The translations under genes were made by a program, and so were the position numbers. This document shows positions 1 through 10,841 of a stretch of 34,479 nucleotides of DNA, piece by piece (positions within the stretch are counted from its first letter, which is position 1; each line of letters opens with the position of its first letter). The notes beneath the pieces were generated by a model, which was not told the DNA's origin, made no database searches, and saw only the letters and a program-made list of their open reading frames with translations. The stretch spans positions 1 through 34,479 of the forward strand of contig JAQBRG010000004.1 in the NCBI GenBank assembly GCA_028286615.1. Reading direction: 5' to 3'. Origin of the DNA: Parcubacteria group bacterium (GTDB taxonomy: Bacteria > Patescibacteriota > Minisyncoccia > Phycocordibacterales > Phycocordibacteraceae).

Positions 1-640
<640 letters not shown>

Positions 641-5367: not shown

Positions 5368-5405
5368 TGAACTTAATCAGTTAGATCAAGGACAAGGACA
5401 AGTCC

Positions 5406-7295
5406 TTAGCCGTTGAGCTGCTCTGCGTCAGTTTCAAACTCAGAAATATCAGGTACTGAGTAGGTTGTGTCATTTCCGAATGACGTCGTTCCGTTTGTGT
5501 CGAAGCGGATTGCCTCGAGTTCTACGGAGTAGAAGTCAGACTGAACTGGGTCAATGCTTACATGGAGGGTGAAGGAACGAGTGTCACCTTCACGAACAAT
5601 GAAGTGCGTTGAAGTGTCTCCGTTGTCAGAATCGTTTGCAGTTACGATGTCGGTTGTACCAACTACCGTAGATGTTGCAGTCGTGCCCTGAACAACGTTG
5701 TAGAGAACACCTGCAGTTACCGTTGTTGTTGCGTTGTCAGCTGACTTGGCGATGTAAACCGTCTCGTCTACTGCTTCAACATCGAAGGTAACTTCGAAGT
5801 CACCCTGCTCACCACCGGTGGTCGTGTTGATCACGCGGGAGTCAGAAGTAGTTTGTCCGTTGATGACTGCGATACCCTGAGATACGAGGGAGAAGGTCTC
5901 ACCCTGTGCCGTACCAGAAACATCGCTGTTGTCACCGCTAGCATCGCCTTCAGCAGTTACGTTAGCAGCTGTGATTGCGAAGGATACGGTCTGGCTTGCG
6001 CCAATAACGTCGCTACCATTGAAGGTAACAGAGAGGCTTCCGTCAGTAACGTCGTTACCAGAGATGGTTGCGTCAATGCTATCGAAGTCAATAGTGTTGT
6101 CGTCGTTGATGTCTCCACGGAAGTCATCGCCGCCAATCGTAAGAGTTGCGGAACGGATGATGTCCGAAGTTGAAGTTGCAGTTGCTGAAGTTGAAGTTGC
6201 AACCGTAACCGTAAGGTCAGTGAGGAGTGCATCTGCATCATCATTGTTGTCAATTTCAAATCCGAGAACAGTGAAGTCATCTGACTCGTCCTGATCATCA
6301 ATGATCAAGGTGTCCGCATCAGGGTTGTCTGAGCTCTCACGAACTGTGAGGTCACCAGACTGCTGTGCGCCGAATCCGAAGGAAACGCTGTCAGATCCAT
6401 CACCGATGTACTGCTGAACGCCAGCAGCGTCGATTGCGCGAACTGCATCGTCTTCAACAGTGATGTCGAAGTCCTGTGCAAGATCGTCAGTATCGATGCT
6501 GTCGTTGATGTCAGCTGCAATAGTGATTGAAGCCTGGTCGCCTTCACGTACTACGTAGTTAAGACCTGTGAGAGAGACAGTGTAGGTCGTGGAGTTTCCA
6601 GAACCATTCTCATCCCAATCATCGCGGTTGTCAGTGTCCATGTCAGCAAGCTTCTTGCCGTTTGCCCATACTGAGATGTTATCAAAGTACTTTGATGGAC
6701 GCTGTTCTACGCCTGAAGTGTTGTTCGTAGGATCGAATGTAACTTCGATGCGCTGTACGTTTACGTCACCAGAGTCAACGTCGAATTCTGCTGTTGCGAG
6801 CTGAACCTCTGATTCACCCTCGTCTCCGGAAGTATCCTCCCCGATAAGGTTGAAGTCGTTAAGGTCAGCTTCACCGCCTGAAAGCGTTGTTGAGCCAGTT
6901 GTCGTAGTTCCACCAGTTGTTGTACCGGTAGTTGTTCCACCTGCTGCGTTTACCTTAGCGCGAGTGATCGGGCCAAAGTAACCTACTGCTGGTGCGATTG
7001 CATTAGCAGCCTGGTAAGCAGCTAGAGCAGCCTTGGTCTGCATACCGAAGTATCCAGTTGCTCCTGCAGGAATTGAAAATCCCTTAGCAATGAGCCAAGC
7101 CTGAAGAGCTGTAACGTCAGCACCTGTAGAACCGATCGTAAGATCACGAGAGAACGTAGCTGAAGTAGTCGTGGTGGTCGTAGTAGTCGTCTGAGCCTTC
7201 GCTGGTGCGTAAGCTGCAAATGACATAGCTACGAGGCCGAGACCTGCAACAACTGCCGCAATCTTCGCAATCACGTTTGTGTTTGCAATTTGCAT
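5406..7295 (-). CDS. S-layer-like acidic surface protein with an N-terminal peptidoglycan-binding domain
   Basis: Signal peptide (MQIANT...AKA); FSRDLTIGSTGADVTALQAWL...GYFGPITRAKV; very D/T-rich beta-strand body. Confidence 0.8.
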   Translation of the reverse strand: MQIANTNVIAKIAAVVAGLGLVAMSFAAYAPAKAQTTTTTTTTTSATFSRDLTIGSTGADVTALQAWLIAKGFSIPAGATGYFGMQTKAALAAYQAANAIAPAVGYFGPITRAKVNAAGGTTTGTTTGGTTTTGSTTLSGGEADLNDFNLIGEDTSGDEGESEVQLATAEFDVDSGDVNVQRIEVTFDPTNNTSGVEQRPSKYFDNISVWANGKKLADMDTDNRDDWDENGSGNSTTYTVSLTGLNYVVREGDQASITIAADINDSIDTDDLAQDFDITVEDDAVRAIDAAGVQQYIGDGSDSVSFGFGAQQSGDLTVRESSDNPDADTLIIDDQDESDDFTVLGFEIDNNDDADALLTDLTVTVATSTSATATSTSDIIRSATLTIGGDDFRGDINDDNTIDFDSIDATISGNDVTDGSLSVTFNGSDVIGASQTVSFAITAANVTAEGDASGDNSDVSGTAQGETFSLVSQGIAVINGQTTSDSRVINTTTGGEQGDFEVTFDVEAVDETVYIAKSADNATTTVTAGVLYNVVQGTTATSTVVGTTDIVTANDSDNGDTSTHFIVREGDTRSFTLHVSIDPVQSDFYSVELEAIRFDTNGTTSFGNDTTYSVPDISEFETDAEQLNG

Positions 7296-7671
7296 GGTAA
7301 TTCTTTCTAAATTAATTGAAGCACGTGAGCAGTGCGTTTTAGTAAGGTGCACTCCCGCACGTACCTTTTGCTAGCTTTGTAAGTACGAACATTTTTCCTT
7401 TACTACCTGACAGAGCGTGCTATCGACGCGGTGCCCCATCAGTTAGCTGGCAAGTTCTTCTATCTTTCTGTCATTCAGCCGTGTCTGTCCTTTGCTTCCG
7501 TTCTGAACTCGTCTCACATATAGACGAGCCGGCATGCAGCTTCTTACGGCTGCAGGCCTGAGAGTATAAGCCCTATTCCTTTATCAAGGATCCGGCGGTT
7601 CAGTAATGCGCACCAGTTCGTTCCGGTAGACACCAGTATACGAGCTGCAGCCTGCATTCTGCCTTAAGCAA

Positions 7672-7680
7672 TGTGGATAA
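7672..7680 (-). promoter_or_regulatory. perfect DnaA box
   Basis: TGTGGATAA, which reads TTATCCACA on the minus strand; intergenic. Confidence 0.55.
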
Positions 7681-7700: not shown

Positions 7701-7727
7701 AAAAGGGGCCGTTTCCGGCCTTTTTTC
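7701..7727. terminator. intrinsic terminator
   Basis: AAAAGGGGCC-gtttcc-GGCCTTTTTT. Confidence 0.75.
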
Positions 7728-7796: not shown

Positions 7797-8561
7797 TCAG
7801 GTAAGGGAGTAGGTAGTCCAACGGCGTTCTCCTGAGCGGGAAACAGTACCTTCCTCTACCAAGGATGAGAGTTCCCGCTGAATAGTCTTCTCACTTACGT
7901 CCCGAATAACCGTAGATATATCCTTTATATAGACAGGACCTTTTGAACGAAGAACATCGAGAATTGCCTGACGGCGACCTGACGCTTGAGTGCTGTCTTT
8001 TATCTGTCCTTTACCATGTCCCTTAGACTCTACCCTTTCGGTTGGTGTTGTCCTAGAGCGTGGCTCCTGCTGTATGCGTGCTGCCGCAACTGAAGACTTG
8101 GCCAGGCTTGCAAGAGTGGGGGCATCGTCCATAAATATGCGTGGCTCTTCGTACGCAGCAATTTCCTGAAGAAGCTGGTGTGCTTCATGCGCAATCAGAT
8201 CCGCGTTCATATTGGAAAGCATGCCTCCTGTGCGGGCGATTGAAAGCACGCTTGAAAGTGCGAGCAGTTCTCTTGAAAGACCTTCGCGTGCAGCATGCGG
8301 AGGAAGAATCGCAGCATCAACAAGACCTACAGCAACGAGGTCCATTCGGTTCCGAAGTGCGGGGGCATTCCGGAATGCGGGAGTTATGAGATGAATCGCT
8401 TTGGCAAGGCGTTCTGCCTTTTTGTAGATGTAGACCCTTTGTATGTCTTTTTCAAATATGTTTGAAAATATACCTTTATCTAGGACGAAACTGTCTAAGC
8501 TCGCGCTGTTTCCTTGCGTTCTTAGTGACTGACTGTCCTTGTTTTGTCCTATATCGGCCAT
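7797..8561 (-). CDS. four-helix-bundle plus C-terminal DeoR-type wHTH protein
   Basis: N-terminal YKKAERLAKAIHLIT...LRNRM helical bundle; C-terminal RRQAILDVL...IKDI...VSEKTIQRELSSLVEEG.V.R.GERRW. Confidence 0.8.
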   Translation of the reverse strand: MADIGQNKDSQSLRTQGNSASLDSFVLDKGIFSNIFEKDIQRVYIYKKAERLAKAIHLITPAFRNAPALRNRMDLVAVGLVDAAILPPHAAREGLSRELLALSSVLSIARTGGMLSNMNADLIAHEAHQLLQEIAAYEEPRIFMDDAPTLASLAKSSVAAARIQQEPRSRTTPTERVESKGHGKGQIKDSTQASGRRQAILDVLRSKGPVYIKDISTVIRDVSEKTIQRELSSLVEEGTVSRSGERRWTTYSLT

Positions 8562-8699
8562 TGGGTTGTATTAGACATTTCGTCTGTAAGACAAAAGAAG
8601 TATAGGTCCTTTAGGACACCCTCGCAACCAGCCTCGCTCTTTGTATTCTTTCAATGCTTTCATTCATGAAGTTCCTGCAAGTGGTGTAAAATATAAGGA

Positions 8700-10841
8700 A
8701 TGGCGCGTAAGAAACGTAAAGCAAAAGAGGCTGCCGAATATGGTCAGCTTACCCGTATTACTACGGGTATTATTTGCATTGCATTTGGACTGATTTTTGC
8801 CCTTGCTGCGTTCGGTCTTGCTGGCTTTGCGGGCGAGGCGATCTTCAGCTTTGGATTTGGCATTATCGGAGTAGGTGCCTTTCTCCTCCCTATCCTCCTT
8901 ATAGCAATCGGTTTTGCCATCATGATGCAGAAGAGTTTTATCTCTCCTCTTACTGCTACAGGCGTTACTCTTATTCTTCTCTCCACTCTGACATTCCTTG
9001 GGATTGTCTCTAGTGCCTGGGGAGGGCTCGCAGGAAGCTACGCGGGACATGCTGCTCGCCAGTACTTCGGTATTGCAGGTGCCATCATTTTGCTACTCGC
9101 ACTTATATCTGTAGGTGTGGTTATAACGATGGACATCTCTGCTCTCCTAACTTTCTTCAAGAGTTTCGGATCGGTACGACTTTCCCTACCGGGACGTAAA
9201 GAAGGAGAAGAGACTCCGGAAGAAGATGTTCCTCAGGAAGAGGTTCCCGCAGAAGCTGCACATGAAGCTGTTGAGCGCGAACCAGTTGTAACCATGTTCA
9301 ATCGTGGAGAGAATGCCCCTTCAATTGCAGCAGCTGCTATTCCAAACTTTGATGCTGAATATCAGGCTCCTCCCCTTTCACTCCTAGGAGAAGATAAGGG
9401 AAAACCAGGTGTTGGAGACATCAAGGCAAACGCCAACATTATTAAGCGTACCTTTATTAACTTTGGTATCTCAGTTGAGATGGATGAAGTCTCTGTTGGT
9501 CCTACCGTTACTCGTTACGCTATTAAACCAGCAGAAGGTGTTCGCCTGCAGAAGATAGTTGCTCTTCAACAGAACCTCGAACTCGCTCTTGCCGCACATC
9601 CTGTTCGTATTGAAGCCCCTATTCCGGGAAAGTCCTTGGTTGGTATCGAGGTACCAAATGCCTCTAAGGCCATGGTTGGTCTTGGTGGGGTTATCGCGGC
9701 TCCTGAATGGTCTGCAAGCAAGAAGCCGCTTCTAGCTGCTATTGGACGCGACATCACCGGCACTCCTCATTACGTGAACACAGCAAAGATGCCTCACGGT
9801 CTTATTGCTGGTGCTACGGGTTCTGGAAAGTCTGTAGCAATACACGCGGTTATCACCTCGCTCCTATATAGGAACAGTCCAAACCAGCTTCGTTTCATCA
9901 TGGTTGACCCTAAGCGCGTGGAGCTCACTCTATATAACGGTATCCCCCACCTCCTCACCCCTGTTATAACGGATCCCAAGAAGGCTATCTTCGCGCTTAA
10001 GTGGGCAGCAAAGGAAATGGATAGACGCTACACCATCCTTGAAGAGGAACAGGTTCGCGACATCGATTCGTACCACTCCACTATTGTTGAGCCTGCCAAG
10101 AAGCGCAAGGCTACTCCCCTTCCCGAAGCTATGCCGTACATCATCATTGTTATCGACGAGCTCGCCGATATCATGCAGAGCTATCCTCGCGAGCTTGAGG
10201 CAGCAATTGTTCGTCTCGCTCAGATGTCTCGAGCCGTTGGTATCCACCTCATCCTCTCTACCCAGCGTCCTTCCGTTAACGTTATTACGGGTCTCATCAA
10301 GGCAAACGTTCCTACTCGTATGGCTCTCCAGGTTGCGTCTCAAATCGACTCTCGCACTATTCTCGACGCGCCGGGTGCCGAAACACTTCTTGGAGCTGGA
10401 GACATGCTCTACATGGGAAGCGATATGCAGAAGCCTATCCGTGTTCAGACTGCCTACATCAGCGAACAGGAGGTTAAGAAGGTTGTGCAGTACATCAAGC
10501 AGCACAATGCTGGCACTCTTGGATCTCTTGATCTTGGAGGCGGTACCAACGGCACTGGGGTTCACGAGCCTAACGACGCCATTACAATGGCTACCGAAGA
10601 CGACGATGTAGATGACGACCTCTACTCGCAGGCTAAAGAAGCTGTAGAAGAAGCTGGCCGCGCCTCAACCTCATACCTCCAGCGCAAACTTCGTATCGGA
10701 TACTCTCGTGCCGCTCGTCTTATGGACCTTCTCGAGGAAAAGGGCGTTATTGGCCCAGCAGACGGCTCCCGTCCACGAGAAGTTCTCGCACAAAGCGGAG
10801 GAGCTCCTGCTGGAGCTGAGTCCTCTAATAACGACTTCTAG
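8700..10841 (+). CDS. ftsK: DNA translocase FtsK/SpoIIIE
   Basis: N-terminal TM helices, GATGSGKS Walker A, IIVIDELAD, TQRPS, gamma domain LQRKLRIGYSRAARLMD. Confidence 0.98.
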   Translation: MARKKRKAKEAAEYGQLTRITTGIICIAFGLIFALAAFGLAGFAGEAIFSFGFGIIGVGAFLLPILLIAIGFAIMMQKSFISPLTATGVTLILLSTLTFLGIVSSAWGGLAGSYAGHAARQYFGIAGAIILLLALISVGVVITMDISALLTFFKSFGSVRLSLPGRKEGEETPEEDVPQEEVPAEAAHEAVEREPVVTMFNRGENAPSIAAAAIPNFDAEYQAPPLSLLGEDKGKPGVGDIKANANIIKRTFINFGISVEMDEVSVGPTVTRYAIKPAEGVRLQKIVALQQNLELALAAHPVRIEAPIPGKSLVGIEVPNASKAMVGLGGVIAAPEWSASKKPLLAAIGRDITGTPHYVNTAKMPHGLIAGATGSGKSVAIHAVITSLLYRNSPNQLRFIMVDPKRVELTLYNGIPHLLTPVITDPKKAIFALKWAAKEMDRRYTILEEEQVRDIDSYHSTIVEPAKKRKATPLPEAMPYIIIVIDELADIMQSYPRELEAAIVRLAQMSRAVGIHLILSTQRPSVNVITGLIKANVPTRMALQVASQIDSRTILDAPGAETLLGAGDMLYMGSDMQKPIRVQTAYISEQEVKKVVQYIKQHNAGTLGSLDLGGGTNGTGVHEPNDAITMATEDDDVDDDLYSQAKEAVEEAGRASTSYLQRKLRIGYSRAARLMDLLEEKGVIGPADGSRPREVLAQSGGAPAGAESSNNDF

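Follow-up and report, generated by a model that had tools for sequence, protein, structure and literature searches.

Several bacterial repressors are served by auxiliary operators placed in transcribed DNA, as is the case for lac O2 in lacZ, gal OI in galE, the GlpR operators within glpD and the three deo operators of DeoR. Other proteins show related arrangements: in Bacillus subtilis a parS site lies within the spo0J/parB gene, CtsR of the Firmicutes combines a winged helix with a four-helix bundle and binds a tandem heptad direct repeat, and Spo0A, CtrA, MtrA, AdpA and HP1021 are transcription factors that also bind at or beside the DnaA boxes of replication origins. The present analysis concerns a candidate system of this kind in a Parcubacteria group bacterium (assembly GCA_028286615.1). 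The window analysed covers 34,479 bases from the beginning of a 186-kb contig (JAQBRG010000004.1) belonging to a 757-kb genome in eight contigs, and the element in question is a minus-strand gene, an open reading frame at 7797..8561 with a 254-residue product, for a predicted winged-helix regulator that carries copies of an AGGACA-type box in its promoter and within its own coding sequence. An original prediction, made from the window, had taken this arrangement for an iteron- or parS-like protein-plus-site module acting in autoregulation by looping or in chromosome organisation. That interpretation is partly supported: the boxes are best read as an autoregulatory operator array on DNA, a sequence-based reading to which we assign a probability of roughly 0.6.

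As in the lac, gal, glpD and deo systems, a putative promoter operator is accompanied by operators hundreds of base pairs downstream in coding DNA, cooperation of the separated sites is proposed, and the predicted DNA-binding domain is a helix-turn-helix (HTH) resembling that of DeoR. Of what is expected of an autoregulated repressor, sites over the predicted core promoter and further conserved sites inside the transcribed region are found here. Unlike in those systems, the internal sites stand in the regulator's own coding sequence, they are 9-bp direct repeats at 11-12 bp instead of palindromes, and they occupy codons of disordered segments, which they fix. Furthermore, the domain order is the reverse of that of DeoR and the C-terminal sensor domain of DeoR is missing, so that the protein, with its HTH at the wrong end, is not a full member of the DeoR family. 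The unusual aspects of the locus would be dual coding in the protein's own disordered segments and a link to DnaA boxes.

The feature was established through orthologs, for which 105 non-redundant orthologous loci were assembled; from one batch of 80 loci, 2 with the frame running off the contig and 8 exact duplicates were excluded. A logo built from 431 aligned sites gave a 9-bp consensus, T(A/T)A(A/G)GGACA, in which the T at position -4 is present in 76-100% of the sites of each class, those of the non-coding leader included. Over 104 loci, sense GGACA copies peak at -50..-1 and 0..+30 (120 copies in the latter interval) and are again heavily concentrated at +110..130 and immediately before the winged helix, while TGTCC has its maxima at +70..90 and, ahead of the ATG, at -20..-11, an interval with 31 copies. 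From one sense box to the next the commonest distance is 11 or 12 nt (76 pairs). The presence of the motif in the gene's own promoter and within its coding sequence, at a spacing of one helical turn, is therefore borne out across orthologs.

In the window, all the TGTC(C/T)(C/T) copies initially listed on the plus strand (7994, 8005, 8017, 8049, 8444, 8534 and 8545) are present with the correct 11-12 bp spacings, and they are GGACA-type copies on the sense strand of the gene. The predicted promoter consists of a -35 TTGCGA (8623..8628, minus strand), read from the sequence and corresponding to a TTGC-type hexamer 17 nt before TATACT that recurs in same-genus orthologs, and of a -10 TATACT (8600..8605, minus strand) kept as TATACT/TATAAT in orthologs. 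The spacer between them is filled by the proposed promoter operator (8606..8618), made of two overlapping inverted boxes, TGTCCTAAAGGACC on the sense strand, which score 9.7 and 8.8 bits with a position weight matrix (PWM). Two TGTCT half-box variants in the predicted 5' leader (8574..8593, minus strand) are uncertain, no 13-mer there reaching 7 bits. As for the inverted copies that had been said to flank the -10 element near 8572, 8588 and 8613, those at 8588 and 8613 exist, and those near 8572 and at 8588 are weak AGACA variants that stay below the same 7 bits.

Within the coding sequence, an N-terminal pair, ATAGGACA and CAAGGACA, 11 nt apart (8532..8555, minus strand; 16.6 and 10.9 bits), codes for I-G-Q-N-K-D-S in a disordered tail, and a linker array of three boxes with 12- and 11-nt spacing (7992..8027, minus strand; 12.9, 17.0 and 7.9 bits) codes for K-G-H-G-K-G-Q-I-K-D-S in a disordered linker. 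The copy at 8049 scores 10.8 bits. Codons 25-40 (FVLDK...FEKDI; 8442..8489, minus strand) are under strong synonymous constraint according to the synonymous-site scan; most orthologs have TGTCCTA, an inverted box, and GAAAAGGACATA, a sense box, in this stretch, and both are degenerate in this genome (GTCCTA, AAAGACA). At the ortholog promoters, the -10 is mostly flanked or directly trailed by TGTCC/GGACA. Most same-genus orthologs show the TTGC-type -35, 17 nt, TATACT and at once GTCC, about 12 nt before the ATG, and some show GGACA-TATACT-TGTCC; in other families TGTCC-N10-GGACA encloses TATAAT and sense boxes, between one and four of them, fill the leader.

The claim that the constraint acts on the nucleic acid, across reading frames, was confirmed both by codon usage in a set of 20 orthologs (48-71% identity) and by an unbiased scan of the synonymous sites of all conserved columns in 91 orthologs, which was blind to the motif. 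In the codon set, the glycine of G[QH] in the tail and linker is written GGA in 44 of 45 cases, compared with 57 of 213 for the other glycines of the same genes; genome-wide, GGA accounts for 38% of glycine codons and for 51% before Q or H. K-D-x is written AAGGACA in 26 and AAAGACA in 6 of 36 cases, and in all 32 of these GACA-type cases the next codon begins with A (Ser AGY, Arg AGR, Thr, Asn or Ile); the other four read AAGGATC, AGGGATT, AGGGATA and AGAGATC. Where the lysine is replaced by serine, the DNA still reads tcGGACA, and KD inside the winged helix, taken as a control within the same protein, has AAGGACA no more than 10 times out of 25. The top columns of the scan comprise G5 (GGA in 99% of 78 orthologs), V26 (GTC in 94%), L27 (CTA in 64%, versus 8% expected), I31 (ATA in 100%), D39 (GAC in 100%), K184 (AAA in 90%), G185 (GGA in 96%) and I187 (ATA in 93%); E37 is GAA in 100%, and the aspartate that follows in the linker is GAC in 96%.

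Conservation of the frame-independent motif in orthologs, a check proposed with the original prediction, holds in the close clade and in 14 other families. For the latter, the PWM was trained on the close clade only, which limits the effect of shared ancestry, and then applied to 14 loci from those 14 families, the sequence or pattern read backwards serving as control in this as in the other box searches. It gave 35 hits in 2,240 bp of leader and N-terminus (reversed control 0), 19 hits in 1,820 bp of linker (control 1) and 12 hits in 6,022 bp of bundle-coding core (control 1). With a relaxed PWM, boxes were found in 11 of the 14 leaders and 9 of the 14 linkers, and in these distant loci the glycine of G[QH] is GGA in 12 of 14 cases, versus 51 of 176 elsewhere.

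Chance was also considered in the window itself. The stretch 7994-8618 is the sole 625-bp window of the 757-kb genome with nine copies; however, when 300 random 625-bp windows of this genome were taken as a look-elsewhere control, 245 contained some equally degenerate hexamer at least nine times, and GCRTKC is found 12 times inside the stretch itself. Consequently, the raw copy count was rejected as evidence, since the window alone could be a product of chance. The proposed genome-wide k-mer enrichment did not materialise either: GGACA and its extensions have observed/expected ratios of 0.87-1.14 (TAAAGGACA, 11 versus 6.2), GGACA-type words show no preferred pair spacing genome-wide, and PWM hits in the genome and the reversed genome number 204 and 261 at 9 bits and 9 and 8 at 16 bits. 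Two further groups of copies, at 7486 in the leader of the downstream surface-protein gene and at 5388-5407 between two surface genes, had been added to the pattern. The copy at 7486 exists, and these copies are not conserved, the equivalent region of 100 orthologous loci giving 3 PWM hits versus 9 in the control; they are best taken as chance occurrences.

The distribution of protein and box was then compared in 151 genomes drawn evenly from the order, of which 134 are of good quality. A family profile matched the regulator protein in 138 of the 151 genomes and in 125 of the good-quality ones; matches had been found in 37 of the 41 relatives first searched, and 1,474 homologs in the database. 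A strict tandem box, AAGGACA-N3-6-AAGGACA, gave 99 matches in 63 genomes, and 19 matches in 17 genomes when read backwards, a control total that we counted from the results table. Thirty-six of the 99 tandems, in 30 genomes, lie inside the regulator gene or no more than 250 bp away, although this target makes up only some 0.2% of a genome; an autoregulatory protein-plus-site module predicts as much. Among the 13 genomes with no match to the protein, 11 have no tandem, and the other two are 80% and 87% complete. Such a distribution would be the usual comparative-genomics signature of an autoregulated factor, with another reader of the box as the alternative. The module proposed originally thus stands insofar as the box is tied to the regulator gene more than to any other place, the binding of the box by the protein being putative.

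The AlphaFold2 model of the protein, built with 34 orthologs, has a mean predicted local distance difference test score (pLDDT) of 80.6 and shows two disordered segments with pLDDT below 50, the N-terminal tail (residues 5-26) and a linker (residues 169-190), together with a four-helix bundle (residues about 40-136, with helices at 40-63, 67-84, 88-111 and 117-136) and a C-terminal winged helix-turn-helix (residues 191-253). The intragenic boxes of the tail and linker coincide with the two disordered segments. In Pfam, residues 196-242 match HTH_DeoR (PF08220) at E 4.7e-5 with 23.5 bits against a cut-off of 21, a narrow margin, and other winged-helix families fall just under their own cut-offs; no DeoR C-terminal domain, ParB family or Rep family was matched at E up to 0.1. 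NCBIfam gave only sub-threshold winged-helix matches, with DeoR-type equivalogs at 11-21 bits where 253-400 are required. Like the box, both the recognition helix SEKTIQREL and the wing GERRW are near-invariant throughout the order; proteins of the SEKT(I/V)QREL type exist in other classes of the radiation as well (at least 594 species' genomes).

Structural comparison of the N-terminal domain with bundles of the PDB gave Z scores of 13.2-15.5, with a root-mean-square deviation of 2.1-2.7 over 99-110 residues (15.5 for 2rld, 14.4 for 2gsc, 13.4 and 13.2 for the Avd structures 4dwl and 8ub7). Helical bundles typically reach about 14, so these values are near noise level and no conclusion was drawn on the oligomeric state. 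The domain superposes in this way on the bundle proteins of 23S rRNA intervening sequences and on Avd of diversity-generating retroelements; those proteins have no winged helix, and the N-terminal domain has no Pfam match. A search of the family profile against the sequences of solved structures returned only the winged helix of a penicillinase repressor (E 0.025), Foldseek against the PDB gave no match at E up to 0.001 and generic winged helices only, and the ESM Atlas matched only unnamed clusters and generic helical bundles. The protein has the same two kinds of domain as CtsR, and its direct-repeat boxes are likewise about one helical turn apart; it differs from CtsR in its reversed domain order, in having no match to the CtsR family of Pfam, in its box and taxon, and in that no link to heat-shock genes was seen. 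In full-text literature searches, the titles and abstracts retrieved held nothing on this protein family or box. The protein may be regarded as a DNA-binding factor specific to a Parcubacteria lineage (Kaiserbacteria/Paceibacteria-type), built of a bundle, a flexible linker and a C-terminal winged helix.

In the mechanism that we propose, the winged helix would recognise T(A/T)A(A/G)GGACA and the protein, probably acting as an oligomer through its helical bundle, would repress its own gene. The boxes that overlap or flank the -10 and the start site would, once bound, occlude RNA polymerase, and pairs of boxes one helical turn apart would allow neighbouring winged helices of one oligomer to cooperate on the same face of the DNA. 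The linker cluster, about 530 bp downstream, could serve as an auxiliary operator, either by looping to the promoter or by blocking elongation, and thanks to the length and flexibility of the linker the winged helices could bind boxes in direct as well as inverted arrangement. Looping, repression and cooperation between clusters are what we infer. With the intragenic boxes in disordered segments, the DNA can dictate the peptides (K/I-G-Q/H and K-D-S/T/R) at no cost to the fold, and this placement would explain the odd conserved peptides. The protein probably acts elsewhere too, at the -35, spacer and DnaA box of the xth-cca spacer described below and upstream of tRNA-Pro.

Clusters of at least three boxes, searched with the PWM, number only three in this genome and none in the control: the linker of the gene, contig positions 105,052-105,094 and contig positions 106,583-106,615. 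The second directly adjoins a perfect DnaA box and lies in a 490-bp spacer between the exonuclease III gene (xth) and the convergent gene of the CCA-adding enzyme (cca), where both box orientations occur around the DnaA box and over a -35/-10 pair. A composite of the two elements, AGGACA-N0-3-TTATCCACA, is found once per genome in 22 of the 151 genomes (backwards control 1); in the loci inspected its place is past the xth gene, and next to it comes TGTCCTTTACA-TGTCCTTTAT, lying over the -35 and the spacer of a promoter with TATAAT or TATACT. Twenty loci with tandems outside the regulator gene were fetched: in 13 the tandem adjoins a perfect DnaA box and the stretch also includes xth, cca or both, one more has an 8-of-9 DnaA box, two have a DnaA box and neither xth nor cca in the stretch, and several are 100-190 nt from tRNA-Pro. 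In this genome, tRNA-Pro is preceded at a distance of 200 nt by a strong box scoring 18.8 bits (C6:107364; L036 3865-3877). A general co-localisation of DnaA boxes with GGACA was considered and rejected, 1 of 12 perfect DnaA boxes being so accompanied here, which is the chance level, and 4 of 23 in the complete genome G071, a number reached by 6 of 2000 simulations.

The xth-cca spacer may also be placed relative to the replication origin. In G071 (742,714 bp), the cumulative GC skew is V-shaped with its minimum at 176,009 and stays flat to about 182 kb; the spacer, at 177.4-178.2 kb, lies within this bracket, and dnaA lies at 206 kb. In G171 the skew turns from negative to positive within a 194-214 kb sample that includes xth at 203.6 kb, and in G117 it changes between 581 and 595 kb, 10-25 kb away from xth at 570.7 kb. 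The skew of the complete genome G017, of the same genus as the genome studied here, changes sign many times and is uninformative, and that of the contig is flat from 60 to 140 kb, so that no origin can be placed in the genus itself. The suggestion that the boxes be compared with the GC skew thus found boxes near the minimum in three complete genomes and a noisy or flat profile in the genus and contig studied here. The spacer appears origin-proximal in three AT-rich genomes and is, by its sequence, a candidate origin only.

These observations separate the two parts of the chromosome link that had been proposed: boxes flank a DnaA box near the skew minimum, and a DnaA box follows the regulator gene, as detailed below, in 98 of 101 loci, whereas membership in the parS/ParB or iteron/Rep classes was not supported, the protein having no ParB or Rep domain and the box being 9 bp long, neither dispersed nor enriched genome-wide. 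The site of a DNA-binding protein, here predicted, inside its own gene and the connection to the origin region recall parS within parB of B. subtilis; here, however, the ParB domain is missing and the box is not palindromic, occurs in many copies per gene and overlaps promoters. ParB/parS systems are recognised by a 16-bp palindrome in few copies around the origin, unlike the mostly direct repeats found at the gene and one or two other loci. Iteron/Rep modules are resembled in the direct repeats and in one cluster near the GC-skew minimum, and differ in their Rep-type domain, of which none was found here. With Spo0A, CtrA, MtrA, AdpA and HP1021 the system would share boxes interleaved with a DnaA box near a predicted origin, together with promoter targets, but it has no receiver or other signal-sensing domain and its xth-cca spacer is only a candidate origin.

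Several side observations were made in these regions. The xth-cca spacer (C6:105051-105545; L036 1552-2045) has no open reading frame of at least 80 codons and contains, after the boxes, the perfect DnaA box and the promoter-like -35/-10, four copies of the palindrome TTTCACGTGAAA; G071, G017 and several further genomes have this palindrome in the equivalent position. By eye, the middle of the spacer is GC-rich in the AT-rich G071, as for a structured RNA; Rfam, run on the spacer and six related loci, returned only tRNAs and sub-threshold noise. The spacer could serve as an origin, as a gene for a novel RNA, or as both at once. About 4 kb from it, this genome (C6:109459/109482) and G071 (173,888/173,919; L163 13888-13927) each have two perfect DnaA boxes separated by 23-31 bp; in G071 the pair has TGTCC/GGACA-like neighbours, lies within about 2 kb of the skew minimum and would be an alternative origin core. 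Within cca, three sense boxes (C6:106583-106615) lie at a conserved ...KGQ..DPY.GQKDI... peptide, and in G160, of another family, boxes lie at a peptide of its cca gene that by eye seems to be the same one (L148, about 2477); cca would then repeat the pattern of codons that double as boxes. At 100-200 nt from tRNA-Pro, strong boxes, single or in tandem, are present in this genome and in five other genomes (L139, L142, L145, L152 and L153), and three copies of TAAA(A/G)GACA within 70 bp (C8:209541-209611; L037 2042-2112) cover, in antisense orientation, the start of the coding sequence of a 161-residue secreted protein.

Downstream of the regulator gene, a terminator-like hairpin, GGCCGGAAACGGCC followed by a T run (7701..7727, minus strand), was read from the sequence and recurs in orthologs. 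It is followed by a perfect DnaA box, TTATCCACA (7672..7680, minus strand), 116 nt past the stop codon; another 31 nt further on comes a TATACT (7635-7640) directed at the gene of a secreted surface protein (5406..7352, minus strand; PG_binding_1 in Pfam, E 2.7e-10; leader of about 280-330 nt), a conserved neighbour. Matches to the DnaA box with at most one mismatch number 6 in the window versus 5.8 expected and carry no weight alone; the DnaA box noted near the gene is nevertheless real and strongly conserved, since 98 of 101 loci have a perfect box on the same strand within 400 nt past the stop, against an expectation of 2.8 for all the DNA searched. The conserved box stands about 30 nt upstream of TATACT/TATAAT, which is followed by a leader of 250-450 nt and by a gene whose translation in orthologs, on visual inspection, shows a signal peptide together with a domain that binds peptidoglycan. 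This arrangement of regulator gene, DnaA-box promoter and gene for the major surface protein is kept order-wide and suggests that DnaA controls how much envelope protein is made. The surface-protein leader has no conserved GGACA boxes in the 100 loci mentioned above. It contains CCTTGATAAAGGAATAG (window 7353-7600), with CTTTGATAACTGAATAG at the same place in orthologs, sequences that we take to resemble boxA-type antitermination sequences.

On the other side, the gene is, as had been noted, divergent from ftsK (8700..10841, plus strand; FtsK_SpoIIIE in Pfam, E 1.8e-61), an arrangement found in 90 of 101 loci, ftsK being absent there in 11 loci from other families. The TATACT of the regulator gene ends about 12 nt before the ATG in most same-genus orthologs (L002-L020), giving very short predicted leaders, and a TAAAAT lies 7 nt before the ATG of ftsK in the window; neither gene has a ribosome-binding sequence (window 8562-8700), which suggests that both mRNAs are leaderless or near-leaderless.

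A number of points weigh against an autoregulatory operator array. The orthologs are related and counts made across them overstate independence, the raw copy count of the window is not above its look-elsewhere control, and the two promoter boxes of the genome studied here are weak. The strict tandem is present at the gene in no more than 30 of the 138 protein-bearing genomes, and 63 of the 99 tandems lie elsewhere, so that the box is not private to the gene and another factor could read it; it is from association that we infer the protein to be the binder. In addition, the intragenic copies of the tail and linker are all sense-oriented, which suits a signal on RNA and is not required of a DNA site, and the first box cluster lies just past the start codon of a short-leader mRNA, where AAAGGA resembles a ribosome-binding sequence. 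Because of these sense copies near the start codon, a role at the RNA level was weighed: an RNA-binding protein, possibly this one, or the ribosome would recognise UAAAGGACA on the mRNA, in its leader, directly past the start codon and in the linker part, and control its translation or stability. The first pair is indeed at most 30 nt from the start codon, and several distant orthologs have a box 5-8 nt before the ATG, where AAAGGA could be a ribosome-binding site. However, the opposite-orientation copy at conserved positions upstream of or over the -10 should be outside the transcript, and pairing with the 16S rRNA tail would presumably not account for the conserved ACA after GGA. RNAalifold found no consensus structure over codons 23-44, and a TGTCC/GGACA hairpin there was discarded, single-sequence folds being weak (-3 to -17 kcal/mol). 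With both orientations in promoter DNA and around the xth-cca DnaA box, and without a consensus RNA structure, the box is read as a DNA site and a role on mRNA is considered quite unlikely. The opposite extreme, that no site exists and the repeats reflect selection for KGQ/KGH and KD(S/T) peptides, codon bias or chance, fits a single-window count within the range of post-hoc motifs and the recurrence of the same peptides in orthologs, but it is contradicted by the codon tests, in which GGA is used in 44 of 45 cases versus 27% elsewhere in the same genes. Moreover, GGACA and the next A persist through changes of residue (K to S; Q or H; S, T, N, R or I), the same 9-mer is kept in non-coding leaders and other loci, and reversed-sequence controls are near zero, which makes this explanation extremely improbable.

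If the boxes are DNA sites, their reader could still be a different factor, global or replication-linked, for which the regulator gene would merely be the most targeted gene. The tandems outside the gene, the conserved clusters in the xth-cca spacer, inside cca and upstream of tRNA-Pro, and the presence of one AGGACA-N3-DnaA-box composite in G029, which is 99% complete and has no match to the protein, would all suit such a factor. Self-targeting is, however, the rule for bacterial regulators, box density across the order is highest at the regulator gene, box and recognition helix are invariant over the same taxonomic span, and the protein-less genomes largely lack the tandem (11 of 13); a separate reader is accordingly judged unlikely. 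The boxes might also be primarily a chromosome-level, origin-associated array of iteron, parS or datA-like type, used by a replication or segregation protein for which control of its own gene is secondary. The composite, mostly in the xth-cca spacer, its bracketing by the skew minimum of G071 with the nearby changes in G171 and G117, and the DnaA box after the gene speak for this, whereas the failure to find a ParB, Rep or DnaA-interaction domain in Pfam, boxes that are neither dispersed nor enriched, DnaA boxes that are generally unaccompanied, the operator-like overlap of the xth-cca boxes with a -35/-10 pair and the noisy or flat skew of G017 and of this contig speak against it, so that we hold it to be decidedly improbable. 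A more speculative proposal, doubtful yet worth stating, retains the regulator as the reader of the box: it would be an undescribed origin-linked regulator acting beside DnaA, with boxes on either side of a DnaA box at or near the origin and at promoters of stable RNAs. Its own gene, always placed shortly before the DnaA-box promoter of the major surface protein and, in this clade, next to ftsK, would also be a dense array of its sites, a datA-like sink that sets or buffers the free protein and is written into the codons of disordered segments. If true, the start of replication, the synthesis of the envelope and cell division would be linked by it in cells without known cell-cycle regulators. 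The autoregulatory operator array remains the reading that we prefer.

Taken together, the initial observation was partly confirmed, and its meaning lies in the biology of the bacteria concerned. In the candidate phyla radiation, whose members cannot be grown alone, gene regulation is almost unknown, and the present locus provides a concrete candidate pair of regulator and site, with a protein matched in 138 of 151 genomes, a 9-bp box and a short list of targets. It would also be an unusually clean case of dual coding, in which a site within a coding sequence fixes codons to 96-100% at single positions and shapes disordered peptides. Finally, the regulator boxes beside perfect DnaA boxes near the predicted origin, together with the DnaA-box promoter of the main surface-protein gene, may offer a handle on how replication is tied to the growth of the envelope in minimal cells.

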